63,694 nucleotides of DNA, filler included, from 9 parts of 9 records of this genome joined end to end with filler, not necessarily neighbours in it; one strand, 5' to 3'. Positions 12,167-60,341 are shown, counted from the first letter of the whole stretch. A program made the numbers and translations. The notes: generated by a model from the letters alone, not told the origin.

Positions 12167-12266
12167 NNNNNNNNNNNNNNNNNNNNNNNNNNNNNNNNNN
12201 NNNNNNNNNNTTAATTAATTAANNNNNNNNNNNNNNNNNNNNNNNNNNNNNNNNNNNNNNNNNNNN
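12167..12266. other. Artificial contig spacer N44-TTAATTAATTAA-N44 (six-frame stop linker)
   Basis: Identical 100-bp linker recurs eight times in the window. Confidence 0.98.
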
Positions 12267-16560: not shown

Positions 16561-18222
16561 TCACTTGGTAGAGGCTTCTTCATATGCTATATCGATGTGT
16601 TCCACACATTTGCGCTGTCTACATGGCTGCTGCTCATCAAAGTTGAGCTCTGCATTGCCTTGACCAGCCACCCTAACAAACACTGTGTCGCCTTCGAGTC
16701 GCACAGGGAAGGTTGCTAATGCTCGTTTGACTGGTAGTCGCTTTGGCTCGCCAGTCTTGAAATCAAAGCAGCCGTTGTGCTTTGGGCACTCGATCAGGTT
16801 GCCCAGTACGAGCCCCTCGTCGAGCTCAGCTGCGCCGTGAGTACATTTGCCTGCTGTAGCATAAAACAGGCCGTCGTCCTCAGCATGATACACGCAGTAG
16901 GACCGTGGGCCAACATCGAACCTAGTCACCTCTCCGGCAGGAAGCTCGTCAACAGAGCACGCGGCTACCCACCCTTCGTCGTCTGGCTGCGCAGAGGTTG
17001 CGCGAGCTGCTGTTTTGTCAGTAGCTCGTTTGGGGGGCACAGGCCGCTTGGTGAAATAATCTGGATCGTGGGCTTGTTTGAGCAGTGCTGGTATCATCTC
17101 GGAATACACCTCAAAGATGCTATTGTACGGTTTGGGCATCTCGCCGCCCTTCAACCTTGTCAGCGACGACCTCATGGCAGGGGGCGCACCTCTTGGAGAA
17201 TCTTGTGCAGCTCCGGCAAATTGTAGTAGGGCACCATCGGAAACATGTGGTGCTCGATGTGATACTGCATCCGATATCTCAGTCCAGCCCAGCTCGGTGG
17301 GCACCTGCATGTTCCAGTATATGAAACTGGATATCGGATTGATGTAGCAGGTGCGAGTGTTTAGGCGATGGTCAAGCACGTCATGCTCGAGCGACGCGTG
17401 CTGGAACACCCCGACGAGTACAAAATGCCAAGCTCCCACAGTGTATGGCAAAAAGACCATCATTGCCGGCAGAAGACTGCCCATCACGCATGAAGCAACA
17501 ACAGTTGCGGCGTACAACCCTAGGAAAATCCTCGCCTGAAACAGTGATTAAGCTGCACCACTGGCAGCCCTGCTGACCTGGAAGAAGACAGCCCTGCTCT
17601 CGCTTTTTGGCACAAATGTCTTCTCCGCTGGTGACAGACTGCCATTGGCGTGCCGCCACAGCTTGCTAGCCTCCGAGCGGATGCCTTGCACGTTGAAGAA
17701 GGCCAGGAATAAATTCCACATATCGAGAGGCCTGCCGTCGATCTCTGGATCTCTCCCCACAATATCGGTGTCCGTGTGATGCCGAGCGTGAGAGAAGCGC
17801 CACACCAACGGCTCGCGAAACACCATGAACGCGGCAATGTTGTACAGCAGGTCGTTCATCCACTTGGTCTTGAACGCAGTGCCGTGGCCGCATTCATGCC
17901 AGCGCGAGTCCCCGGAAGAGGTGTACAGCGTGCTGTAGACGAAGAAGAGCAGGGACCACAGCTTATACTGGCCGTGCGCCCAGCAATAGCAGCTGCCCGC
18001 CCCACTGGCCGCGATGAGCCCGAATAGCAGGATTGTGTCGCGGATGGCGTGGTAGTCGTCTCGCTTCATCAGTCGACGGAGGGTCTTCCGCTCTACGTAA
18101 GGCACAAACCACTGGCCCGACGCCAGCCCCTTTTTAACCGCGAGCGCCGACTCGGGCCCGTCCAGTGAGTAGTCTCTGTAGCCATCCCGAACAGGCAGGC
18201 AGCCCGGCTCTGCGGCTGCCAT
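16561..18222 (-). CDS. Fusion of MocD-like membrane di-iron desaturase/hydrocarbon oxygenase and MocE-like Rieske [2Fe-2S] ferredoxin
   Basis: Introns 17536-17577, 17265-17304 and about 17149-17189. N-terminal RDYSLDGPES..A...GLA..QW is MocD-like, with His boxes WHECGH, SHARHH, QHASL and YHIEHH. The C-terminal Rieske motif is CTH...IECPKHNGCF. Confidence 0.85.
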
Positions 18223-18626
18223 ACTCAGGCCTCGTGCCTCTCTGCTCGCTGAGGCGCCTGACCCTCGGTCCAGCCCAAAGTTCCGGTCTTTTTCAGCACA
18301 ATGCATATGCTCTGCACAGAGCTGGAGTGGCGGCAAGTGTGCCTGTGGCCTGTGGCTGTCTGGCTAACTGAGAGATGGTGTGGCTGCCTCCGTCGCCCCA
18401 GTCGGGCCGGGTGGCCGATCCCGACGGTCTGCTTTCGGATGGGGCAGTGAGTGCGCTGAACAAGCTGCTCACTGTTACTCACTGCTCAGGCACTAGCTCA
18501 GGCCTAGGAGTCACAATTACATGATTGTATGGACCAGCAGATCATCGCCCTTTGCGACCGCCAGTGCGCGCACGGTGGTTCACTGAGCTATAGAAACACT
18601 ATAGAATATCCCATGTTTTAATTAAG

Positions 18627-19573: not shown

Positions 19574-19673
19574 NNNNNNNNNNNNNNNNNNNNNNNNNNN
19601 NNNNNNNNNNNNNNNNNTTAATTAATTAANNNNNNNNNNNNNNNNNNNNNNNNNNNNNNNNNNNNNNNNNNNN
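19574..19673. other. Artificial contig spacer
   Basis: N44-TTAATTAATTAA-N44. Confidence 0.98.
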
Positions 19674-21776: not shown

Positions 21777-23351
21777 TCATCCTTGCATGCCCTTATGATA
21801 GGCGCCTTGCTGCTGCGTCAACCAAAGCATGAATTCGGTGTAATTGATCCTCCCGTCCCGGTCCGTGTCGGAGAACTGAAGCATGCTCCGTGCCTCCTCG
21901 TGGTTGATACCAGGAACCAGCTTGGAAACCATTGCCGAGAACTGTTGAGCGTCCAAGCATCCACTGCTGTCGGTGTCGGCTTCCTCGAACAGACTTGATG
22001 CGCGCGCGCTGTCCACCTTTGCCAGCTGGTCCACCCATCGTTGTGGCACCTCCCCGCGGCTGGGCATAGAGTCGCCTCGAATCCCCCAGGCGTCCTCACA
22101 CATCTTGTAAGCCACCGGGTCGAACCCTTTAAGCTCTGCGTGCACATACGGGAAGTAGTCGTTGCAAAACCTCCTGCTCGAAAAGAACGCCTCAGAGCTC
22201 TCAGCAAAGAATTCTTCTTTATTCCCGGCACAGTATGGTTTGACGCTTTTGGCCGTGCCGCATAATTCTGCAGTGTCGTACAGGCCACTCGCCATCGCGG
22301 TCTTGTATGCCACTTCGATGATGCCGTCGACCGCTGCTTGGTTGTGGCAGTGGTAGGCGTGACTCAGCTCGTGTAGCAGCATCGCTGGCTGACTGGACAC
22401 CCAGTCGAGGTAGTGCTTGGCCTGGCACACCTCGACGCACCCGCCTTTCTCCGGCAGGTCGCCTCTGCCTTCGGGGTAGTGCCGGCTCCAGTGGCACCAA
22501 GCTCCCGACTGAGGTTGGGTCGCATCAGGGTACTGAAGCACGTCATTGATCCACACAGCAGTCTTCTCCCGGAGCAGGCCCAGCGCCGCAGGTGGGAGTA
22601 GCCTGCTGATCTCGGCCATGTCACCGTTGATCTGATCTCGCATCCTCGGATACTTTTCGAGCACATTTTCCTCGACAAAGAATCGGAGACCCTCGACCTC
22701 GATAGGGTGATACACTTTGTCCATGGCCGTGCAGCAGACCCGATCCCCGCACTCACGCCAGATGCACTGCTGTTCCGTCTGTGGCTTGACCTCGAAAACG
22801 TTATGCCGCTTGTTCTGCTGCCGTTTCCGCAGCTGGCCACTGGCCTGCGTCGGCCCAAACGTGACAGTGCGCCAATCCGGATTCTCAGCGAATCCAGTTC
22901 CAGGGACTTTAACCCAGCAGCAATCCGGGTCTGCCAGCTGATAGCAGTAGCCCATGGTCTTGCCCGGGTTGGCCAGGCACACTCGCTCGGCTTCGGCCGC
23001 GGTGAGTCCGGACGCGAAGTCGCCCCCACTTGCGAGGTATCCTAGCTTCACCTCGCGGGCGGCAGTCAGTCCGTTGAGCACAGCGCTGAGCGTCAGGGAG
23101 CACGAGCTGGTGAAGCAGACGCAGGCCAGCTCCTGCTGGTCCGGACCGGAGATCAACCACGGGTGCTCGCTGTTGCTGCTCTGGTTCCATCTCGCCCCGG
23201 CAGCCAGCTCGCCGTACTGCACCGGGCTGCCGCCGTAGTCGATCCAGGCCAGCGAGACCTTTAGGCTCAGGTCGTTCACCAGCTCGACCTGCACGTCGCC
23301 GTTCGGGTCGTACGTCGACCTCCGGTCGCTGGGCGCCCGAAACGCAGCCAT
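21777..23351 (-). CDS. VHL-beta domain + zincin metallopeptidase (HEXXH...EFFAE) + EF-hand pair protein, intronless
   Basis: Domains read directly from the ORF: VELVND..KVSLAWIDYGG..VQY..L.....W.Q....HPWLI (VHL-beta), MLLHELSHAYH and NKEEFFAESSEAFF..NDYFPY (peptidase), and DTDSSGCLD / DTDRDGRINYTEF (EF hands). Confidence 0.75.
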   Translation of the reverse strand: MAAFRAPSDRRSTYDPNGDVQVELVNDLSLKVSLAWIDYGGSPVQYGELAAGARWNQSSNSEHPWLISGPDQQELACVCFTSSCSLTLSAVLNGLTAAREVKLGYLASGGDFASGLTAAEAERVCLANPGKTMGYCYQLADPDCCWVKVPGTGFAENPDWRTVTFGPTQASGQLRKRQQNKRHNVFEVKPQTEQQCIWRECGDRVCCTAMDKVYHPIEVEGLRFFVEENVLEKYPRMRDQINGDMAEISRLLPPAALGLLREKTAVWINDVLQYPDATQPQSGAWCHWSRHYPEGRGDLPEKGGCVEVCQAKHYLDWVSSQPAMLLHELSHAYHCHNQAAVDGIIEVAYKTAMASGLYDTAELCGTAKSVKPYCAGNKEEFFAESSEAFFSSRRFCNDYFPYVHAELKGFDPVAYKMCEDAWGIRGDSMPSRGEVPQRWVDQLAKVDSARASSLFEEADTDSSGCLDAQQFSAMVSKLVPGINHEEARSMLQFSDTDRDGRINYTEFMLWLTQQQGAYHKGMQG

Positions 23352-23397
23352 CTCTATAGCTTTGGGGCTTCGCACCGTTAGAAAGTCCGTTATCGCG

Positions 23398-23874
23398 ATG
23401 CTCGGACGGGGAAGCGTCTGGTTTCTGGCCGGCCGGCGTTCATTCTGCGGCTACCAGAAGCCTGCGGTGCTGGCCGGGGCGGCGCGGGCCCAGGCGTTGG
23501 CCGAGCTCCCCGACTGGCAGGAGGTGCGCTGCCTCCGGAGTCTGGCAGCCACCCCGGACAGGTGAGCGGCCGGGACGCGATCCAGCGCAGCTTCAAGTTC
23601 GGGAACTTCAACCAGGCGTTCGGGTTCATGACTCGGGTGGCGCTGGAGGCCGAGAAGGTCCGGCTGGGCCCGGCCAAGGCCAGCCTGCGCAGGCCGACCA
23701 CCACCCTGAGTGGTTCAACTGCTACAACAGCGTGGATGTCACGCTGAGCACGCACGACGCCGGGGAGGCCGGCGGGCTGTCCGAGCGGGTGCGGCGCGTC
23801 TGTGGGCTGGCGGGGTCATGTGGGTGCAGGACGTGGCACTGGCAAAGCTGATGGACCAGTTCGCCCAAAGCTAA
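23398..23874 (+). CDS. PCBD: Pterin-4-alpha-carbinolamine dehydratase with probable mitochondrial presequence
   Basis: Introns 23524-23561, 23658-23692 and 23789-23829. Splicing gives [63 protein letters not shown]. Confidence 0.93.
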
Positions 23875-28082: not shown

Positions 28083-28182
28083 NNNNNNNNNNNNNNNNNN
28101 NNNNNNNNNNNNNNNNNNNNNNNNNNTTAATTAATTAANNNNNNNNNNNNNNNNNNNNNNNNNNNNNNNNNNNNNNNNNNNN
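28083..28182. other. Artificial contig spacer
   Basis: N44-TTAATTAATTAA-N44. Confidence 0.98.
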
Positions 28183-31244: not shown

Positions 31245-31344
31245 NNNNNNNNNNNNNNNNNNNNNNNNNNNNNNNNNNNNNNNNNNNNTTAATTAATTAA
31301 NNNNNNNNNNNNNNNNNNNNNNNNNNNNNNNNNNNNNNNNNNNN
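31245..31344. other. Artificial contig spacer
   Basis: N44-TTAATTAATTAA-N44. Confidence 0.98.
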
Positions 31345-35046: not shown

Positions 35047-35146
35047 NNNNNNNNNNNNNNNNNNNNNNNNNNNNNNNNNNNNNNNNNNNNTTAATTAATT
35101 AANNNNNNNNNNNNNNNNNNNNNNNNNNNNNNNNNNNNNNNNNNNN
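35047..35146. other. Artificial contig spacer
   Basis: N44-TTAATTAATTAA-N44. Confidence 0.98.
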
Positions 35147-43974: not shown

Positions 43975-44074
43975 NNNNNNNNNNNNNNNNNNNNNNNNNN
44001 NNNNNNNNNNNNNNNNNNTTAATTAATTAANNNNNNNNNNNNNNNNNNNNNNNNNNNNNNNNNNNNNNNNNNNN
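43975..44074. other. Artificial contig spacer
   Basis: N44-TTAATTAATTAA-N44. Confidence 0.98.
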
Positions 44075-47000
44075 GTCCAGCTTGTAGAATGGGACATCTA
44101 AGAATGTGGCTAAGTACTGAATTGAATACGTTTTACCACACCCGGTCTCGCCCATGATTACCACAGGCATCCCACATCGTGTGCGATTGAACACAGCAAG
44201 CATTTTCATAATGTTATCAATTGTCAGAGTAAATGTGTTCATAATTCGCTCTCGGGCAGCCCGGCTGGCTGGCACATAGTGGTTGGGATTGAGCTTTCGC
44301 CAAGTGTTGGTGCTAGGGTCCATGTGCAGATCCCTCCCACCCGGATAGGTCACTCCACACATTCGCTTGAGCAAGGCTACACCAGCCTCTTGGAGCGATA
44401 GTGTCCCAACCTGACTGGCCATTGCGTGTGTCACATGACCATGCTCACCCATCGGCACTTCTTCCCCAGTATAGTCGACAAATTGTTCCCAGCTACCCTT
44501 AATAGATTGCCAGTAGTCCCGCACTTCCATATCAAGGACAGCTGGGTTGAGACACAACGATGTGAACTCGCCATTCCAGTTGTAAACCATATGCCCCCAG
44601 TCATGATTCGGATTGGGCTGCGACACGCCTGGGAGAAGTATCCCTCGGCTGGTCCACTGGTTCATTAATATTAACGTCTGTTGATCGTCTTGTTGGGAAA
44701 GACCAAGAGCTACCACCTGTTCGGCAAGGAGCGAGTTTTTGGCTAAAGACCGTGCTGTCACAGACTGGCTCATTTCAACCAAGCGTGCAACAATCCTGAC
44801 CATGATGTCTTTCTTACCAGTTTTATTCTGTATTGTCTTTGCATCTCCGCCATGACGGGTGTTCTCAATGATCTCGAATGCATTCGCATGGAGGCAGTGA
44901 ATAAAGTTGATTGTCAGAATCAGAGAGCATTCAGAGATCTTTGCGGATCCTTCTCCTGCGACTCTTGGCGAAACGTCATCTAGAATCTGCATGCATTGAT
45001 TATACGACATTTGTGGAAAGTCTTGAGATCTGAATTTATTTGTCGGTCGTCCTTGGGCATCTGTGGGTTCGTTCAGTAGTTGACCATGGTTGTTTAATAG
45101 CGCGTGGAGCCATTTGCACACTGTCTGCACTTCTGGCAAATCTGTATCGAGCACTACTTGGTGGACCTGACCACCTCCGAGCCTGTCTAGTTGCGGACTA
45201 TCAAGCATCGCCCGATTAAAGACACAGATCTCACACGGAAGCAAATTGACGAACCTCAAACGCTTCTTGAAATCATCTTGCTCCGTGGGCGTGCCCAGGG
45301 CTGGAAATTCCACAAGTACTGGATGCACAGTGTGCAAAGGATTGACATATCTGCCCTGTGTGTCAATGAGTACGCCGAGCACAATTAGAGAAAACATCAG
45401 CATATCGATGCTCTCATTGCTTACTGGAGATAGCATTAGATGTAACACAGACGAGGTGTCGCGGCACCTAGTGTTGCCATCTACAGTGTAACTGCTAGTC
45501 ATGCCATCGCTGTCAAGGACGGTAGCAGCCGTAGTATTATGGTAGATGGCCAATGGAATGTACTGTAGCTGCTTTGATTGAGCTAAGTGCTGAATCCGAT
45601 ATGTCTTGCCTGCTCCTGCAACATCGGATTTGAATACCCTCACTGCTGGGCTCTTTGCCTTGATCTCCTTGTCATAAACACTGCTCAACAGATCTTTGAA
45701 AGCCTCATCGGACGGAAGCGGCACTGTGCGATGATACTTGCTGAGTGCTGCAGTCAAAAGTGACGAATGATTAACTGAACTGCTGGCAATCAGCACAAGC
45801 CGTCCGAGCCGCCCGTGGCCGTACTTCTCCTTTATTATTCTCAACAATTTGGTCTGAATCGCGAATGGCAACCGCTCCGGGAGTAGCAAAGCATACATGC
45901 TTTCAGGATCATTACGGTCGTCGCAACTGCGCATCACGAGCAGCTCTACACTTTCTTCCGCAGTGGTCAAATCACACCGAAGCACCTCGTGAGGGTCGGG
46001 CAAACGACCAAAGTGGCCATAAAGATTAAGGACCATTGGCAATACGTCGTAATCGTTTGCGAGCCTCACAAAGTGAGGCACACCAAATCCGAATTGCTCA
46101 CAGATCGACCCACCAAGCTGCAGGTTACTGCTCGAGAGCCTTCTGCGGGGCCGTCCAATATTTCTAGCCGCCACGACTTGATCCAATGCAAGTCCAAGTT
46201 TCTGAATCTGCTCTATTCCCAATTTCCAAGCACCTTGATCAATCAGAGATTGGCTAAGGTCGCTATTGGCCCTTTGGAGTTTGCTGATATCATTAGCCAT
46301 CGCATTGATAAGATCTTGAGTTTTGGATTCCTTAGTGCAACCCATAAAAAGCAGCGCATGCTTGACTTGCTCGGTGCAGCCATTTTTGCAATCCCATGCC
46401 AGCTGCATAAGTTGCGGCACTGTGAAGTAATTGAGTGAAGTGTGCTTTTCGCGCTGTCTGCTCACACTATCTTTCCACAATCCTAGCTCCCTGAGCCGTG
46501 TTTGACGCACCTTGCCAACCTGATGAGGACTCATATACTCTTGCGCACTCATTGCAGCAGCGTTTGCTGACAGTGGAATGCATGTCTCGTAGCCGTCTGC
46601 CCCAGATTCGCGATTTCCAGAAAGGTAAAGATCGACGAGTACCTGATTTAAAGTCTCAACTTGTACCAGCAGAGCTTGGTACTCATCACGTGCTGTTCCG
46701 AATTCTTCGACCAGCTCATCATCCATTAAAAATAGTCGGTCACTCAAATCTGACGCGTATGTAAACGAGATTACTGCTTGCTTGCCACCCTCAGGCATGC
46801 TAAAATCCTGGCCCTGGGCATGCACTAATGTCATGCAACTCTGGAACAGCTTCAACCCAACTTTGTGTTCATCGTCTTGCTCTTTTACAACAGGATGCAC
46901 GCAGCGCCAGAGGCCCTGCTGCACTAGCACCGCAACCAGCTCTGCATCTTTCTTTCCAGAATCCATCTTCTGCATCGACTGCATTGCAGCTACAGTGGAT

Positions 47001-50000
47001 AGGGTAGCTCGAGCCCTCTGGATCTTTTTGACGAACTCTCCGCTATCTTTTACATTGATATTTCTCGTCGCCGCATTGAGTCGGTCCATAATCACTTGAA
47101 GCGACAAATGCGCTTCATTGGGTGCAAGAATCGATACGAGAATGTGCCGGACTGACTCAAGATCATAGAAGGCCTTCATTTGCTGGGGTGTGTACTCCGA
47201 TCTATTTTCACTGATAAGCTGGGAGAACCCAGCAAAATCGCTGTCGTTTCGTACAAATGCAAACTTCTGTTGGATTAGCATCTGAATTAAATGATCCTGC
47301 TGCTGAACTTGGTTCAGCACCTGAAGAATTACTCGGTTTTCAGCCGAGAGAGCCGAAAACATGGTGGAGAGCTTCCCCAGAGTGCTTGTTTGTTCACCCA
47401 TGTCTTTCAAAGTGAGCCTGTTCATGTCTTTAAGATTATCACACAGGGCAAGCAGCTTTTGGTATTCTGCATCATCATCACCCGCAAAGCGTCCTTGTAT
47501 TGTCAGGGACTTGATGAGGTCAATGAAAGCAATCACAAAGGTGGATTGGCTTCGCAGAAAGAGAAAGCCATTGAATGCACCGACGATGTCTGGGCAGCGG
47601 TTGTCAGCATCACTGGCACATGCGCTTATTGACGCCACAACTTGAATTTCGGTCTCTAATAAGGCATTGTCTGACACTCGGGTCAACTGGAGCTTCAGTA
47701 CATTCGCAAACCACTTCTCAAGCTCAGATAGCTGGATAGTCAAGTCACAGAGCCTTGGAGCCACACCTTCCCATTCTGCAAACAACTGTGGCAGCAGCAA
47801 TTCAAAAAAGTCATGCTCAGAGAGGGGACTTTTACGAAAGTCAACGCCACTGCCTTGTGCATGGCTGGTAATAGCCTGCTTACATACACTTGGGAAGAGG
47901 ATTTTAGAATCCAGCATTGTCGCAAGCCTTGCCAGCTCAGGCTCGTGGCGTCCAATGAACAGCATTGAAGGTGACGCCCGCACTTGCTGCATGGTGATCT
48001 GATCCCATTGCTCAAATCGCAGTGTCTCGGATTCCAGAATGAAGGTTTGAAGGTCATCAGCGCGGTTAGGAAAGAAGGCCTTGAAGAAAGATGTCACCTG
48101 CTCAAGTAGACCTTTGCGTAGAATGAGTGCTTGAAAGTCGTCAAACACAGTGTCAGATTTCTCAGCGCTAAACAGAGCACTTCCAGAGCTACGAAACAAC
48201 TGGGAGACCAGTGCTCGGTGAGCAGAGCAGCACCTCATCTTTTCCATTGAGCATCGCTCATTGTAAAAGTCCTCCATCAGAGTATTCAAAAGCTTACCTA
48301 GCTTCGCTAATGTGTCGGCAGTGAATTTAGCTCGGTCCACCTGAGTCTTGTTTTGCGCAGCAAATTGCATAAGCTGTAGTAAAACTTTCAACAAATGTTC
48401 CGTAGTAAGAAGTGTCTTCGTAGCCTGCACACTCTCGCTTTTCAGGAAGACAAAGGTCGCTTCACAAAATTGATCAAGGAGCTGCAGCCCCAGTTCCACG
48501 TTCACTGCAGCTTCTACAGTGACAGACGCAATGGTGAGTGCCTGGGTGTACAACTGACTTCGACACTTGTGTGCAATCCAATCTGTAAGATGCGAAACAA
48601 TCAGCTGCGACAGTTCTGGATTAAGTGACGATAGCGGCATATCTGGCTCTACCACCAGGCTTCTGCTCGCATCCTCGTCAGCACTGCGCAACCTACTAGT
48701 GCAGACACTCAGTAGGGCGTCGTGCAAGAAATCACGGGTGATGAGCTCGTTGCACCGTTGGAACAGTTCAAGCACATGGAGCGGGCCAAGCTTCTTCTCA
48801 ATATATCTGGTTATAGCTCTCTCAAACTCTTGTTTGCTGCTGGCCCCAGAGTCTGGGTCAAAGCTGAGAATGGCTGCAGTGACGGAAACATCTGGGGCCA
48901 TGCCACCTGTTTGGTTGGGCAAGCTGATGTCAGCTTGACTAGCTGCTGAAGGGGAGCGGAGCGATACTTGTTCAGGTTTGAGTGTCTCAGGCTGTAAGAT
49001 CTCAGCAATAATGGCAATCATCACCGGCAGGTCTTCTGGTACAAAATACGAGGATTGCAATAAGTTGGTGCCCAGCTGCATCGAGCCCAAGGCAGGCATC
49101 CCAGGTAACCATTCTGCAAAGACGGCACTGCGGACCATTTTCATTACGGTTCTGGCATCCTCCCTAGTTTGTGTGGCTGTGACCAAGTTTGCAAGCATCA
49201 TCTTTGCAGCACCTTGTACGCAACCCAGCTTCTGAAGTTTGGAGGTGGCCATCAAAAGTTCGAGCACCTCTGTTAACGCGGCTTCTGGATTATCCCAGCA
49301 ACACTTGAGTAATGGTATCTCTTGTAACATTCCAGCCACGGCGATCTCGACTGGTATCCACGCATCACGCTGTCTACCTTCAAGGTGGGAATAGTGCTCC
49401 ATTGCGAGAACCCTGCTCAGTAAGTGTATGACCGCCTTCATATCTGGTGCCATGCTAACCAACTCTTCGGGCAGAGGTCGAGGTTTGCTGCCCAACGCAC
49501 CTATATCGCGCTCGAATAGTCCTCGATCAATCAGTTCATCAACCTCCCCAGTAAAAAAGGTGTGTGTAAGTGGCGCCTTCTCAGCACTGCCTGCTTTCGA
49601 AAGCATCGTGAATCTATGGGGTGGCGATCGCTGCTGCGAACCAGATTTTCTGGCAAGATAATTGATGAGAGCGAAGAATCGAATCGACCGGCCGTTGGTT
49701 TGCTCTGCTGCAGATTTAGAAATGCGCTCAAAGGCTTGCTGCAATACTAGGCTATTGCTGCCAGCAGCAATGAGTGCTTCCACTTGTTTACTTCCAGACA
49801 TGACAGATTCCGTGATCAAATAGGCAAAATCCCACACATATGTCAGCGCCCGATCCTGGTTACCGTAGGCCTGTTGTGCTGGATCTACCAGTGATGGTAT
49901 TAGGCAGAGCAGCACTGGCGTTACCTGCCGACCAACCGCTTGTTATAAGATGAGTATGCTACGGAGTAACTAGCATCTCAAAAATCAAGAATAGCCCCAG

Positions 50001-51660
50001 CACATACCGTCACACTGTTCTGTTCGATTTGTTGCACCCGAACAAGCTTCTCTTCAAAGCACGGAAGGCTGGAAACAGCAGCAACACACGATTGACTAGC
50101 CAGCCGAAACAGCTCGCAAGCCTGCCGAAGCTCAATACGGAGGTTGACTGCCGCGTCTAGAGTCTCCTCAAACATCAGCGTGGCAGGCTCAGAATCATGC
50201 ATCATCATTTTCACTGCAGTAACAGACCGAGATCAGAACATGTTCAGGTCTCGCATTTGCCTGCATGGGCTTGTTTAAAATCCAGTTCTGCGACAGGAAA
50301 AACAGGAATCGGGTGACTGCTGCACCACTCTATCATCTGTTGGCCTCCACCAAAGCTAGCTGTCCGGAGAGAAACCTGAAGCTGGTTGTCTGCCCCCCGG
50401 CACCTGCTCCGGACCCATCTGTTGCCCTGCACTCAGATCTGTCACTGCAAGTGCACCAGCATGGACACCTCTGCTAAAACCAGGCAGTATCGGAACTGCC
50501 CTGGACGCTGGCGCATGGCAACTGTGCCACTCACAATCTGGTGATTGACGCCTGTTCTGAAGAATTCAACCTGCCCAAAAGGTCGGCTGAGGCTAGGCCG
50601 AGCTAGAACTAATCAAATTATATCAAATTGTATCGAGTGGCACTGGGGTGAGCTCGACTGCTGGGGTGAGATCCTGGGCGAATTTGCCATCAGCTGATTC
50701 GAGCATTATCATCAGCCTGCAGCTGCTGCCAGCGGCCATTGGGTGCACGGCATAGAAGGTCACCTGCCAGCCTGTTGCTACCCGGGCGTCGGTCTGGCAC
50801 CTCCGTATTTGCATCCGGAGGCGGTGTGCTCGCCTTAGATGCGCCAGTGTGCACCTGGCAAAAGCCTGAGCTGGGCGCATTCTCAGACGGAAACAGCCGG
50901 CACGGTACATTCTCAGCCACAATCAGCCATTCACAGCAGCTGGCACACCATGGGAATCCGGGTGTACGGAGACCAGCAGGTGCCTCCGTCCTTGCGCATT
51001 TGACTCGTGGCCACGTGAGCCAAGGCCATGGAGCACACTGCGGCGCACACTCAGCCAAAATCCAAATCCAGCGCCTCACTATCCTGTATGAGCCGGTTTG
51101 CGCTGTGCGACTCCGCCGCGCCCGGCACGTTCTGCAGTCCGTTGGCCACGTTATGCTGAACAGCCTGCCCCGGCTCGCCCAGCCCTCGACGAGCCGGCGC
51201 ACCGTGTTATATGCCTCGGCGAGCGACTCGAGACGGTTCCGTTGGTTGGACTCGGCCATCTGCAGCCAGCTGGCCCGCATGTCCGCGCTCATCGGCTGGC
51301 CCAATTCGAGCGGCCTGCCCACCGCTCCGGCCGGCCGAGGGCGGCGGGCACCGGTAGTGCGGCGCCACGTCCGGAGGGACCGGCGCCTGGTGCTCGGGCG
51401 CCCGGCGGGGATCTCGCCAGGTAGAGGTGCCCCGTCCCACCTGGACAAAGTAGTAGGCCTCTTTAAACCGGCGGTGCCGCTTGCGCTCCCAGCCTGTCCG
51501 CTGGGATCAGGCCTCGGTCAGCGCGGGGCTCGCCGGCTGGGAGTGGCGGGTCCGGGTCATCGGTGTCCGAGTTGTCGGAAAAGCCGTCGCCCTGCCCTGG
51601 CGGCGCGATGTCAGGCGGCCGCACAGTGTCGGCCTTGGAGCGGCAGGGCAGGCATCCCAT
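44075..51660 (-). CDS. RNF213: RNF213/mysterin-like giant dynein-type AAA+ ATPase (3' truncated), with N-terminal MGC acylation motif, WW and CBM20-like domains
   Basis: FTLTIDNIMKMLAVFNRTRCGMPVVIMGETGCGKT closely matches the recalled RNF213 LTTDNMLKILAIEMRFRCGIPVIIMGETGCGKT. SDVAGAGKT, LPDPHEVLRC..TAEESVELL and LNYFTVPQL also fit. About nine short 5' introns (e.g. 51494-51533, 50214-50260, 49925-50007) connect the 5.85-kb exon to ATG 51660 (MGCLPC...LPAGWERKRHRRFKEAYYFVQVGRGTSTWRDP). Confidence 0.8.
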
Positions 51661-51932
51661 GCCGAAGGAGACAGCCTCCGGCGGGTCTTCCCACTGATGC
51701 CAAGTCCAGCTACGGTGCTTGCAGCTGAGCAGTCCTGAGATTGGTCGTTGCACTGTCTGTGTGTTTCGTCAAGTCTCTGGGTGCCACCGCGAGCGGCGAG
51801 CGGCACCAGAAACTCAAACGGCAGCAGCTCAGCAACGCTCAGCTAGAGCTGCACAACCGCCCATACCAGCCGCCCTCCCTCCCCCCCCCCTACTAACACA
51901 CACCGCCTTGCGCCGCTCCTCCTCTTCGAGCC

Positions 51933-54900
51933 ATGGGCTGTACGCCATCGCGAGATTCGTCGAAGGAGAGTGGACAACTCCCGCGCCGGCGCGCGCCCGT
52001 CTGGTCCGTGGAATCGTCGACCCTCGGGAGCGACGAGAGCTGCGACCTGACAACCTCTTGGCGCGAAAATAGTAGACAGAGCGCTGACGTCTCTGGTCTG
52101 ATAACCAGTAGAACCGGAGGGCTGGATGGTGAAGAGCCAGCCGACGGAGACCTTGGGATTGGCGACTTCTGGCTGACAGCGCTCCCAATCAGCAGTGGTC
52201 GGTCCAACCCTAACAGGAAGATCGGGGAGTGGCCAGCAACCCGCGGGGGACTAATTTACCAGCAGGGGATTTGCATGCCGGGCGAAAGCCAGAAAGAAGT
52301 AGAGCTCACCTTCAGGCTGGATGGTCGGTTCACTCAGATGCAAAGCGAGCTTGCGCTAGGCGACCACGCATCAGACCAGCTGGCTGGAGTGACCTGTCTG
52401 GTGCGGGCGGACGGCCAGCCGCTCTGGCAATCACCGGCAATCACCGACAAGCAGCAGACCTACGAAACCGGGATGCTGGCCGTGTCTGGCGTGCAAGAGC
52501 TCACCCTGGTGGTGCTGGTGGACGGCCCGAAAGACCTGGGCGCCGGCGCCGATGTGATCTGGCTCTCGCCCCGGCTGTGTTCCGAGCAACCGGACTCCGA
52601 GCAGGAGTGGCTGACGAACGACCCTTCGTTCACAGTGGACAACTGCACCCGGCACAGCTCCACTCTGTGCGAGAATTCGGGCCCGGGCTCGATGGTTGGG
52701 CTGGCCACCAACACTGTGGATCAGAACAATCTGTCCTGCTGGTCGGCTGGCGAGGGCCACAGGAACCAGAGCTGGCTGATGTGGGACCTCGGGCACCAGG
52801 TGCAACGCGGAGCACACCAGCTGAGCCTGTGTGGCCAGGTGAGTCTATCGGGTTTCCGTTACTACACCCGGGGCCGGTGGCATCCGCCAAAGCGCTGCTA
52901 CATCGAGTGCTACCAGGTGCGAGCTCGTCAAGCTGGCAGCAGAAGCCTAACCCTAAATTGTCTAAGCGTGACAATTAAGTGTTACCAGACTGATACACTG
53001 ATCTGGCTGACTGGCAGGACGGTACCTGGAAGACCTGTTGCACTCACAGAGGGAGTGAAGCGGAGGGCTGGGAGCACCTGCTATTTGACGGGTGCCTTTC
53101 CTGCCAAACATTCCCAACACCGCTGCTGGCAGGCCTGCATGCGCCAGGTACTGGAAGTTCCATGTCTTGTCGACGTATGGCCGACGCGCACGAGTATACC
53201 AGGTTAGGGTTTGGTTGGGCTGTGTGAGGCCCCGGATTCAGGTGGGTTTCAAGCTCAGCCCTGAGTGCAGTGGGGAAGGGGACGAGTGTAACACTTTAGG
53301 ACGAGTGAGCACGAATTCGATGGTAAGTATTGAGTTGCCGAAGTATTCGGGCACTCTGAGCAAGAAGGGCGAGGACGTGGTTGGGATTTGGAGACATAGG
53401 CTGTTCGTCTTGAGACAAGGACAGATTGAGTACGGCGAACAGGCTGCCGGCGACCAAATTGTGAATCCAAAGTTTATTTTGCTCGATGGGATGACGGCTG
53501 AGTGGCTGAGCAATGATGACCACCAAGGGGAGAGCATCTTGCTTGGATCCGATGATCCAGACGTCGCGCCAGGCGATCGGGTGTACGAATTGCGGTGCGA
53601 TTCTCAGGTCGAGACTGCCATCTTATTCAGCAAGATTTATGCAACAATCGCCATGATGGCGGGGCAGAGCTACGTGTTGCCTGACCATGTGGCTTCACTG
53701 CTGATTGTGTCGGAGCACAACTGGATTACTGTGGACGACACTAGGAAGAAAAGGAAAAGAGAAGTTAGAGTACTCAGATCATCGCCTGTTGTTGCTTCGT
53801 CGGAGGACAGCTTCGACGCCAGCGGCGTGTTGGATGACCTGGACACCTTTCATTGGAAGAGCCAGTTTGCTCCTCATTATATTATATTCCAATTCTCAGA
53901 TGCAATTGAATTAAGCAAGATCAGATACTTGGCCCCAGATTTGGCTACGTGTCCATCCAGGTGTGAGCTCCAATTCTCTGATAATCCTGATGGGGTCTGG
54001 TCCACCGCCTCACAGTGGGCGGCACGCAAGGCATACGGATGGGTGCTTGCTGCTTTCGAGCCCAGGGCAGCACGTTATTGGAGACTGAATATATTGTCTA
54101 CTCATGGCAGCGGACAGGCCGAATTGATCAAAGTCGAATTCTTTGGGGCACTATGGGAACCATTTGACTTTGTTTCTGGAGAGGTCAGGAATGCCCCAGC
54201 TCCTGCTGCACCCAAGGAGGTGGAGTGGGGGAACAATGACGACGAGCGTGGGCCTTCGCTCGAGTTTCACATTCAAAGAGATGATGTGCAGTGTCCCTCT
54301 TCGGGTGCTGACCTCGAAGCAAGATATGGGAAATTGGAACTGAATGAAGAGGCCGAGCAAATCCGCAACGCGTTGCGAAACCGGATCCTCGCAGCTCGCA
54401 AAGACAGGCATGTGATGACAAACAATCTCTCAGTGGTCGTGCTGCCTGACCCTCGTGCTACAAGGATTTGGGTGCGAGCATTTCCAGTGGGTCACTTTGT
54501 GGAATCTCCACACGTCTGCTTGTTTGAGCCTCAGTTTGATGATGTGTTGGCAGCAATCGCTGATGAGGTCGAAGTAGATCTTATTTTTATGGTATCGCAC
54601 GATGCTAAACATATGGAGCGGGTGGGCCAAATGGTGAGGGATCTTTCGAAACGTCATACCACTGTAAAGTTCAACATGGTTGTCACGCCGCCCTTGAGAG
54701 TTCATGGGGCAGGTCCACTACAGCATGCGCTTGGTGATGTTGTCAGTATGAACAGAGCGAAAATAGTAGACGCTTCTCTCGGTTTCATACCGATTATGGA
54801 AGATGTGTACTCTCTCGAGATCCCTGCAGCTCTCCTAGATGAACACATAGAGGGAAAACATTCCCATAGTACAGCCTTTCCCACCTTTGTAGTGGCGCTT

Positions 54901-56407
54901 CAGAATTATGTCAGAGATAGCCAACGAGGCGCAGTGGGCTGTGTAAGGCTCAAGGGCGACTTTGTTGCCAATTTATTCAGTCAGATTCCAGAGTGGCAGG
55001 CGGCATCCGACGGCCAGGACGGGGGAGCAGCGATTGTTGTTGGAATGGACCGGGGGTTCGACCTCATGAGTGTCTTAATGCCACACGACTCATTTGCTTC
55101 CATGGTCATAGAGGGCTTTGGGGATGACTGGCAAGTTGCACCTGCCAGATTGTTAGATGGCACTGCCGAGGGGCTGGTCGAGGAGCTTGATCCGCAGCAA
55201 TGTCTCGCAGAACTCAAGAAAATCTCGCTGTGGGATGAGTGTTGGGTCAAGCTTCAAGATGTAACCTTTGGACCTGAACTCTATGAAGCAGCCAACGTAC
55301 TCGAGTATGAACGAAATTTCAGGCATGCTCAAGAGCTTGGGCGCAAAGCAGAAAGGACACGAGAGATGGAGGATATCCGGGCTGCATCTGATGCCTTCAA
55401 AAATTTCAAGCATGCTACACCGTATGCCAAGACCTGGGCCCTGCTTTATAGACAACTTGGCCAAGCTGCAACACTAAAAAGGTCCAAACCCCTGGGGCCA
55501 GCGAAGTTCCAACTGCATTCCAAGCATCAGATGATAGCATGGATACGGGACGTAGTGTGCGACCAACGGTACTATGTTCACAACCCAAGTGAAGCCATAG
55601 AGTTCCTATACGAATGCATTGAGGTGAAAATGCGACTGCGGATGGTACTCCGGTTGATTTTGCTCTACGAGCTCACGTCGGAGAGCGGCATCGCATCAAC
55701 TCACGTGGTATCTATTATTTTTATTGCAATTCAACTGTGCTCTGTGATCATTTCTTCTGGTGGCAGGAACAACTGAAGAAAAGAATTCAACGGACATATG
55801 GCCGAAAGTATATGTACCAACTTGTGGTGATGCTAGAGATACTTCGCAGTGGGAGTCGGCCGCGTTGTTTCGCTTCAGTTGCTCAGAAGTTCCACCTCTT
55901 TCCTCACCGAGGTCGCCACAAGTTTGTTCCTCTTTGTGTCCGGCTGCTCCAGGTGACCTTCATTCACATGCGAGTCATCCGCATTCAAGTACTAACATGT
56001 GACTGGGGACAGTTGGCAATTGAGTGCATCTCTTTTGAAGGCCGGGTGGTGAATCGATGGCTGACACCACAAGTCCACAAGAATTTACAAAGCTCTGCAG
56101 AGCTGCTACCTGGCCGCATCATCACCCGAGGGGACACTAGAGCGCTCAGGCCTGGTGCTCCAGTGATATTGCTGCTTCCGGGAGGCTGCACCTTCAACGA
56201 AATCAACCAGGTACTCAAGCTCAGCTTACCTTGTTGCATTCCTACTTGCTCATTCCCACTCTCATTGTTATCCAACCCCCTATTCATTCCACTTGTTTAT
56301 CTGCTATGCAGGCCAAAGAAGCGGCTGCAAGGATGGGTCGAAAGCTTACTATTTTGACCTCAAGATTGTTCGGTGGTGATGTTTTCATCGATAGCTATGA
56401 ACTTTAG
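51933..56407 (+). CDS. MGCxxS-acylated NPCBM + F5/8C + PH + F5/8C + Sec1/Vps33-like fusion protein (multi-exon)
   Basis: NPCBM (LTFRLDGRFTQMQSELALGD...ADGQPLWQSP..VSGVQELTLVV..VIWLSPRL), two discoidin domains (WLMWDLG..ARYWKFHV; YIIFQF..ARYWRLNI), PH (YSGTLSKKGE..IWRHRLFVL) and a Vps33-like part (FIPIMEDVYSLE, MDRGFDLMSVL, VLRLILL, RTYG, FVPLCVRLLQ, LPGGCTFNEI). The last intron is 56211-56311 and the stop ends at 56407. Confidence 0.72.
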
Positions 56408-56612
56408 CAATATATTTAGCAATAAAAATGATACTGTACTACTATATAGTACATGCAGTGTAGCTGGACCACCCTACACTAATCTAACCTTACACTGACA
56501 ATTTTCAGTACAGTGTGCATATACTAATAAATTACCGTACTGTACAGTACACCCCGCCGCCGGGACTGAATGACTTGTTATACTAGCACCTTAGGGACGT
56601 ACGTGGAGAACT

Positions 56613-56712
56613 NNNNNNNNNNNNNNNNNNNNNNNNNNNNNNNNNNNNNNNNNNNNTTAATTAATTAANNNNNNNNNNNNNNNNNNNNNNNNNNNNNNNN
56701 NNNNNNNNNNNN
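56613..56712. other. Artificial contig spacer
   Basis: N44-TTAATTAATTAA-N44. Confidence 0.98.
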
Positions 56713-60241: not shown

Positions 60242-60341
60242 NNNNNNNNNNNNNNNNNNNNNNNNNNNNNNNNNNNNNNNNNNNNTTAATTAATTAANNN
60301 NNNNNNNNNNNNNNNNNNNNNNNNNNNNNNNNNNNNNNNNN
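60242..60341. other. Artificial contig spacer
   Basis: N44-TTAATTAATTAA-N44. Confidence 0.98.

Follow-up and report, generated by a model that had tools for sequence, protein, structure and literature searches.

The question raised by this locus is whether a Sec1/Munc18 (SM) protein can carry, in its own polypeptide chain, the modules that would bring it to a membrane. To our knowledge, SM proteins are single-domain proteins of about 600–700 residues which reach membranes via SNAREs or partner complexes, and for canonical Vps33 the sole route to a membrane is as part of HOPS/CORVET. The gene considered here lies on the + strand of a 63,694-nucleotide window (by which we mean the whole stretch of DNA analysed), and an earlier note on this DNA had proposed that it encodes NPCBM, discoidin (F5/8C), PH and second discoidin modules fused to a divergent Vps33-like domain. 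We find that this is a real, transcribed and spliced gene from an uncultured marine protist, that one expressed frame joins the PH, second discoidin and SM domains, and that the NPCBM and first discoidin modules are linked to these through a split domain. We consider it reasonably likely (a probability of about 0.6) that the product is a self-targeting SM protein whose membrane recruitment is part of its own chain.

One spliced gene encoding the SM fusion

The window consists of nine separate contigs chained by eight N44-TTAATTAATTAA-N44 linkers, across which adjacency carries no meaning, and the NPCBM–discoidin–PH–discoidin–SM gene is located entirely within one of these contigs (44075–56612). 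A scripted gene model made from the sequence placed six exons at 51933–56407 with a product of 1370 residues and no internal stop, and with five introns of 101, 41, 59, 60 and 101 nucleotides in order, each having GT at the start and CAG at the end (Table 1). The ATG at 51933 is preceded by an in-frame stop 12 codons upstream and the stop codon ends at 56407, so that the coordinates given in the earlier note are exact from ATG to stop codon. Most of the domains are found in a long open reading frame (ORF) of 895 codons, running from stop to stop at 53089–55776, which includes the PH domain, discoidin 2, the linker and about two-thirds of the SM domain, and this bears out the proposal that the PH–F5/8C–Sec1 part lies in a single open frame. 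Removing introns 1 and 2 rebuilds discoidin 1, which then aligns with discoidin 2 as a single high-scoring segment pair across both junctions (E 3e-10), and it is because discoidin 1 is split over exons 1–3 that the NPCBM exon can be joined to the 895-codon ORF. We note that intron 2 could alternatively be a one-base frame error of the assembly, with the reading frame carrying on in both cases. At the other end of the gene, spliced residues 1041–1368 are colinear with P0002, a relative described below, across introns 3, 4 and 5 (32% identity, E 3e-45).

Expression of the gene is seen in contigs from four metatranscriptome runs belonging to four studies (of which the run table gives three as polyA or cDNA libraries), which match at 99% identity or better and cover exons 3–5. 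These contigs are short and none spans the whole gene. Two of them report on splicing, with a polyA-RNA contig (X4) joining across intron 4 and omitting exactly 60 nucleotides with GT..AG ends, and an RNA contig from X5, which starts at 55766, bearing in front 11 unaligned letters, TCAACTCACGT, with which exon 3 finishes. The earlier note had offered separate transcripts as the observation that would speak against a fusion, and the contigs instead show introns 3 and 4 spliced and the linker-to-SM junction covered. No RNA contigs were found over 51700–53480 (which takes in exons 1–2) or 56079–56550, an absence which is uninformative either way.

The product is a single soluble protein, 1370 residues long. 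Its first 90 residues are rich in Ser and Gly and its first 30 are hydrophilic, and no 19-residue window in the whole protein exceeds 1.45 on the Kyte–Doolittle scale, which indicates neither a signal peptide nor a membrane helix. All of the protein, the sugar-type modules as well as the SM domain, should therefore be cytosolic. The N-terminal MGCxxS reported earlier was read as MGCTPS at 51933, which we take to fit the dual-acylation consensus (Gly2 and Cys3, then a small residue at position 6), and at the level of motifs the combination of MGC, PH and discoidin would suggest that the protein is tethered to a membrane.

Domain assignments and relatives

The C-terminal 600 or so residues very likely belong to the Sec1/Munc18 family, although they are very divergent members of it. 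The N-terminal part of this region (54316–55707, the SM N-part) matched the Pfam Sec1 profile PF00995 with 28.4 bits and E 1.2e-6 over profile positions 42–310 (at 54574–55392), where the curated cut-off is 30.7 bits and the spliced protein was scanned in parts. P0002, which is colinear with the C-terminal part of the domain (SM C-part, exons 3–6), matched the same profile with 45.7 bits over positions 366–575, and the two matches jointly cover the Sec1 profile in order. An ESM look-up of the nearest named clusters returned Sec1 in 29 of 30 for the SM N-part and in all 30 for P0002, with scores of 0.96. All of the SM motifs listed in the earlier note (DRxxD, VLRLxxL, xxYG, PLxVRL and GGCTFxEI) are present in the translations as GMDRGFDLMS, MVLRLILLYEL, RTYG, VPLCVRLLQ and PGGCTFNEI, and its assignment of the C-terminal region to this family is supported by the Pfam and ESM results; where it had allowed that the region might fail Sec1 profiles, matches to the Sec1 profile were obtained, that of the SM N-part being below the cut-off.

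The more specific description of this domain as Vps33-like is weakly supported. Profiles of the C-terminal third of the SM domain were compared with all PDB chains with a reporting limit of E ≤ 10, and profiles A2 and A10 matched Chaetomium Vps33 (E 0.006 and 0.024, respectively) while profile A4 matched human VPS33A (E 1.1). Vps33 proteins were the only SM matches within this limit in the three profile searches which reached any SM protein, and Munc18, Sly1 and Vps45 chains were absent at E ≤ 10 from all of the SM profile searches of PDB. The alignment of A4 with human VPS33A is gapless over 68 positions through LRL...YG, and the A2 alignment with Chaetomium Vps33 contains the YG and PL.IRL.Q elements, as in exon 4 and P0002. 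Against this, the E-values range from 0.006 to 1.1 and the clusters named by the ESM look-up are not those of Vps33. The profile searches, rather than a phylogeny, thus point to an affinity with Vps33 that is consistent but weak, and which we regard as probable. It should be noted that MAFFT misplaced the short exon rows and P0003 in alignments A1, A3, A6, A7 and A9, and that there is no single profile for the whole SM domain.

The order of the domains, NPCBM, F5/8C, PH, F5/8C and Sec1-like, is as had been proposed and is supported by Pfam, fold models and internal alignment. The NPCBM assignment is secure on its Pfam score (Table 1). Discoidin 1, which had no direct Pfam match, resembles discoidin 2 and also, at E 1.9e-4, the F5/8C domain found in P0003. 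The PH domain is the weakest of the module calls, being below the Pfam cut-off but consistent across methods, and we regard it as probable: the top PDB match of profile A12 was the PH domain 1v89 (E 0.2), and the AlphaFold2 model of this part has a PH-like seven-strand sandwich and a long C-terminal helix, with block-mean pLDDT (predicted local distance difference test) values of 71–86 and one loop at about 50. Discoidin 2 scores above the Pfam F5_F8_type_C cut-off and also has the discoidin beta-sandwich fold. Profile A11, built from family rows without a Pfam match of their own, matched 3f2z in PDB at E 3e-4, followed by CBM32 modules, and in the AlphaFold2 model covering the PH domain and discoidin 2, whose mean pLDDT is 72, the discoidin part is at about 90. 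The fold matches of this model (Foldseek E of about 4e-7, VIA Z of 12–14 with the top at about 14) include CBM32, the galactose oxidase N-domain, sialidase CBMs, the factor V/VIII C2 domains, muskelin, APC10 and IFT25; the fold-search lists were filled by these discoidin 2 matches and did not reach the PH part of the model.

The family is rare: when 1.84 billion representatives were scanned exhaustively with HMMER, just 14 matched. Three of the matches, each a fragment, fall in the SM part (P0002, P0012 and P0004, the last having P0015 in its cluster), and the remainder match discoidin. P0002, P0004 and P0012 differ from each other where they overlap, and it follows that at least two other organisms carry this type of SM domain. 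P0002 is an ORF from a EukProt Trinity transcript and begins with the adapter-derived residues EMCIRDR. P0003 is likewise an ORF from a Trinity transcript (985 residues) and contains an NPCBM domain (52.7 bits), a PH-colinear region and an F5/8C domain in the same order as the SM fusion; this cassette is followed by an acidic linker and then about 200 residues of unknown family (residues ~650–985), the end being cut by Nextera adapter read-through (LSLIHI). The possibility that the last 340 or so residues of P0003 are SM domain 1 was considered and rejected, as 97 of 300 shuffles equalled or beat its Smith–Waterman score of 34. P0001 shares 51% identity over the discoidin end and then an LE..YG..EL element, which in the SM fusion protein sits just before the SM domain, with a score reached by 5 of 1000 shuffles, and this gives a weak hint of a closer relative having the same discoidin–SM junction.

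Further searches returned no additional relatives. A word-index protein search with the 895-residue ORF (using words from the first 500 residues) was empty, as was a comparison of alignment A2 with longer proteins, and P0003 as a query found itself only. Of the 587 and 92 pattern matches from two metagenome contig scans, none were confirmed by tblastn. Sec1 and NPCBM were not found together in the literature searched, nor were other SM families with this domain set, and no SM protein with such modules was found in broader literature searches covering titles and the beginnings of abstracts. We also note P0013, a protist-like protein of 490 residues which has an F5/8C domain (36.3 bits), a match to the end region of the Pex24p profile (30.5 bits), which we take to be DysF-like, and a synaptobrevin R-SNARE motif (46.1 bits), and is a second example of a discoidin domain joined to fusion machinery.

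Proposed membrane recruitment in cis and its alternatives

For the self-targeting SM protein that we favour, the acyl motif, PH domain and beta-sandwich modules would hold the protein at the cytosolic face of one particular membrane via lipid head groups, or possibly via a glycolipid or protein. The SM domain would there bind Qa- and R-SNAREs and template their assembly, and the recruitment which HOPS/CORVET gives to Vps33 would be supplied in cis. As the modules should be cytosolic, lipid or protein ligands are likelier than free sugars; the fold matches themselves do not decide between a lipid, protein or sugar ligand, and a lipid or protein is favoured. Ligand gating of the SM fusion protein is no more than conceivable.

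Several known proteins resemble the SM fusion in part. The Vps33 structures (PDB 4jc8, 5buz, 8dit, 4bx8 and 4bx9) are of the Sec1/Munc18 family, to which the SM fusion very likely belongs too, and the A2 and A4 alignments show a common LRL...YG...PL.(V/I)RL.Q...GG.T..E layout in the C-terminal third. In contrast, the similarity is barely detectable, the SM fusion has about 760 extra N-terminal residues (NPCBM, two discoidins and PH), and the stretch preceding PL.VRL is shorter than in Vps33. Sec1/Munc18, Sly1, Vps45 and SCFD2/MIP3 belong to the same Pfam family and are among the nearest named ESM clusters, but none of the profiles matched one of their PDB chains at E ≤ 10. Muskelin, APC10/DOC and IFT25 match the fold of discoidin 2 (Z 12.8–13.4) and are cytosolic precedents for it; they bind proteins, whereas bacterial CBM32 modules that bind sugars head the matches of discoidin 2 by both Z and E-value.

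Lipid-binding elements are also known close to the SNARE-assembly machinery. Munc13 and CAPS have lipid-binding domains of the C1, C2 or PH type within their own chain, and in the case of Mso1/Mint or Sly1 lipid is bound by a separate partner protein or by a short helix. Compared with Sec1 plus Mso1/Mint and with Sly1, the SM fusion would have four folded modules and an acyl motif in the same chain. Sec1 with Mso1/Mint (PMC3564535) and Sly1 with its membrane-binding helix (PMC10943372) are reported as SM proteins that need a nearby lipid-binding element, and Munc13/CAPS, which are reported to have a SNARE-assembly module in cis with lipid-binding domains (PMC3849599), follow the logic proposed for the SM fusion. 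The assembly module of Munc13/CAPS is MUN/CATCHR and not SM, however, and there is no homology to the SM fusion.

A number of results count against a self-targeting SM protein and are brought together here. The score of the SM N-part is slightly short of the Sec1 cut-off, phmmer searches of PDB with the 895-codon ORF gave no matches at E ≤ 10 and with P0002 gave no SM protein within the same limit, just a P450 at E 1.4, and profile A8 of the SM N-part found no SM protein in PDB, the best match (GPSM2, E 0.2) being noise. The read-through of exons 4–5 had no Pfam match, and the AlphaFold2 model of the SM N-part, made from a five-row alignment, had a pLDDT of 39.7 and was excluded from the fold search. 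The matches to Vps33 are weak, and the ESM look-up named Sec1, Vps45, SCFD2 and MIP3 clusters in place of Vps33. The C-terminus of P0003 gave an hhalign probability of 0.1 as an SM domain and no Pfam Sec1 match at E ≤ 10, so that while the NPCBM–PH–F5/8C cassette is common to P0003, the fusion of this cassette to an SM domain has so far been seen only in this gene. At the 5′ end, the candidate start codon and acyl anchor are read from the DNA, exons 1–2 having no RNA contigs, and 51868–51932 contains a C-rich tract, TACTAAC and an AG directly before the ATG; these elements could be the acceptor of an intron in the 5′ untranslated region or of a coding exon lying further upstream, and with the latter the true N-terminus would not be MGC. 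Finally, membrane placement and SNARE templating are functions that we infer from sequence and models.

Three other explanations for this gene were weighed. The protein may be the organism's sole Vps33 orthologue with a lineage-specific N-terminal extension, placed in HOPS/CORVET via Vps16 and using the modules as a second membrane contact, as might be suggested by Vps33 proteins being the only SM matches in PDB and by there being no other Sec1 match in the 25 long ORFs scanned from the 54 ORFs of at least 200 codons in the window. The window is nonetheless a tiny sample of the genome, and with 28.4 bits and no phmmer matches the divergence is extreme for an orthologue in a core complex, which makes this quite improbable in our view. 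Such divergence, together with a score below the Pfam cut-off, the absence of a confident AlphaFold2 model for the SM N-part (pLDDT 39.7), and the presence of SCFD2 and MIP3 (SM-like proteins with unclear SNARE function) among the nearest named clusters, would fit an SM domain that is a degenerate relic without SNARE chaperoning, the protein then being a cytosolic lectin- or lipid-binding adaptor with the SM fold as a scaffold. We are doubtful of this as well, since the DR..D, LRL..L, YG, PL.VRL and GG.T..E motifs are kept end to end, and are also kept in P0002, P0004/P0015 and P0012 at 30–43% identity; conservation in these three other fragments argues for selection on the SM domain.

It is also conceivable that the fusion is an artefact produced by two genes merged by the splicing model, by a chimeric metagenome contig, or by a pseudogene. 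Intron 2 is just 41 nucleotides and may be a frame error, GC content drops from 0.61 to 0.50 along the gene, and exons 1–2 are without RNA contigs, yet 895 stop-free codons extend over PH, discoidin 2, the linker and SM domain, discoidin 1 is split over exons 1–3 with the spliced frame of 1370 codons intact, and spliced RNA contigs match at 99% identity or better. In addition, P0001, which comes from another source, runs from the discoidin end into LE..YG..EL (the 5 of 1000 shuffles noted above), and we therefore consider an artefact to be highly unlikely.

A self-targeting SM protein would be of wider interest because SM proteins are core to every eukaryotic membrane-fusion step. A natural SM protein with targeting modules would test how much of the work of HOPS/CORVET or Mso1/Mint is recruitment, and what a membrane-held SM domain still needs. 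It would also give the cytosol NPCBM and CBM32-type modules, for which the usual reading is sugar binding outside the cell, and a new ligand would then be called for. SM proteins are described as four ancient families, with Vps33 acting within HOPS (PMC1810245). A bolder suggestion, which we put forward tentatively and think unlikely, is that the fusion is an SM protein of a fifth kind, restricted to one lineage, which needs no tethering complex and finds its membrane by itself via the acyl anchor, PH domain and three beta-sandwich readers. Were this true, then taken with P0013 it would suggest a fusion pathway in which the SM protein and the SNARE each carry ligand-reading modules, e.g. one serving a specialised organelle in a predatory flagellate or the repair of damaged membranes.

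Feature coordinates and other observations in the window

Table 1. Positions of the features of the SM fusion gene, the RNA contigs matching it and the linkers between contigs, counted from the first letter of the window.
Feature	Position	Strand	Content or basis
MGCTPS	51933–51950	+	Candidate N-myristoylation (Gly2) and palmitoylation (Cys3) motif; read from sequence
Exon 1	51933–52916	+	Start codon, Ser/Gly-rich N-terminal part, NPCBM, first half of discoidin 1; gene model
NPCBM/NEW2 beta-sandwich	52206–52529	+	Pfam PF08305, 41.4 bits (cut-off 23.9), E 1.8e-10
Discoidin (F5/8C-like) 1	52605–53229 (edges approximate)	+	Split by introns 1–2; aligned to discoidin 2, E 3e-10
Intron 1	52917–53017	+	101 nt, GT..CAG, phase 0; domain colinearity
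Exon 2	53018–53091	+	74 nt; DGTWK...LLFDG core of discoidin 1
Intron 2	53092–53132	+	41 nt, GT..CTGGCAG; near-gapless match to discoidin 2 after removal
Exon 3	53133–55707	+	2575 nt; end of discoidin 1, PH, discoidin 2, linker, about two-thirds of SM domain; one frame
Probable PH	53341–53658	+	Pfam PF00169, 21.2 bits (cut-off 25.1), E 4.3e-4
Discoidin / F5/8 type C 2	53794–54183	+	Pfam PF00754, 29.4 bits (cut-off 28.2), scanned alone
Linker, discoidin 2 to SM	54184–54400	+	Open frame; RNA contig 54351–54553 from linker into SM
SM-like domain	54401–56404	+	About 600 residues, interrupted by introns 3–5; Pfam, P0002 alignment, ESM look-up
Intron 3	55708–55766	+	59 nt; RNA contig support (run X5)
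Exon 4	55767–55952	+	RTYG and FVPLCVRLLQ motifs
Intron 4	55953–56012	+	60 nt; RNA contig support (run X4)
Exon 5	56013–56210	+	Carries LLLPGGCTFNEINQ
Intron 5	56211–56311	+	101 nt; colinearity with P0002
Exon 6	56312–56407	+	Includes stop codon
AATAAA	56421–56426	+	14 nt past stop; possible polyadenylation signal, read from sequence
RNA contig stretch	53519–53708		PH
RNA contig stretch	53867–54065		Discoidin 2
RNA contig stretch	54351–54553		Linker into SM domain
RNA contig stretches	54654–55001, 55247–55502		SM domain
RNA contig stretch	55766–56078		Exons 4–5
N44-TTAATTAATTAA-N44 linkers (first four)	12167–12266, 19574–19673, 28083–28182, 31245–31344
N44-TTAATTAATTAA-N44 linkers (last four)	35047–35146, 43975–44074, 56613–56712, 60242–60341

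On its contig the SM fusion gene has a sole neighbour, an open frame on the minus strand (44078–49942) which has 1955 codons or more and runs off the contig end, and the 5′ end of the SM gene therefore lies within the GC-rich 2 kb between both genes. This neighbouring frame is without a Pfam family, barring a sub-threshold touch of AAA_22 at the cut end.

Two further observations were made on other contigs of the window. At 16564–18363 on the minus strand there are two adjoining open frames, one matching the N-terminal part of a fatty-acid desaturase (44.7 bits) and the other, directly downstream, matching a Rieske [2Fe-2S] domain (61.4 bits), and these may be one gene with an unusual desaturase–Rieske pairing. 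Also on the minus strand, one open frame at 21780–23450 has a match to Peptidase_M90 (MtfA-like, 29.1 bits) which is followed by EF-hands.

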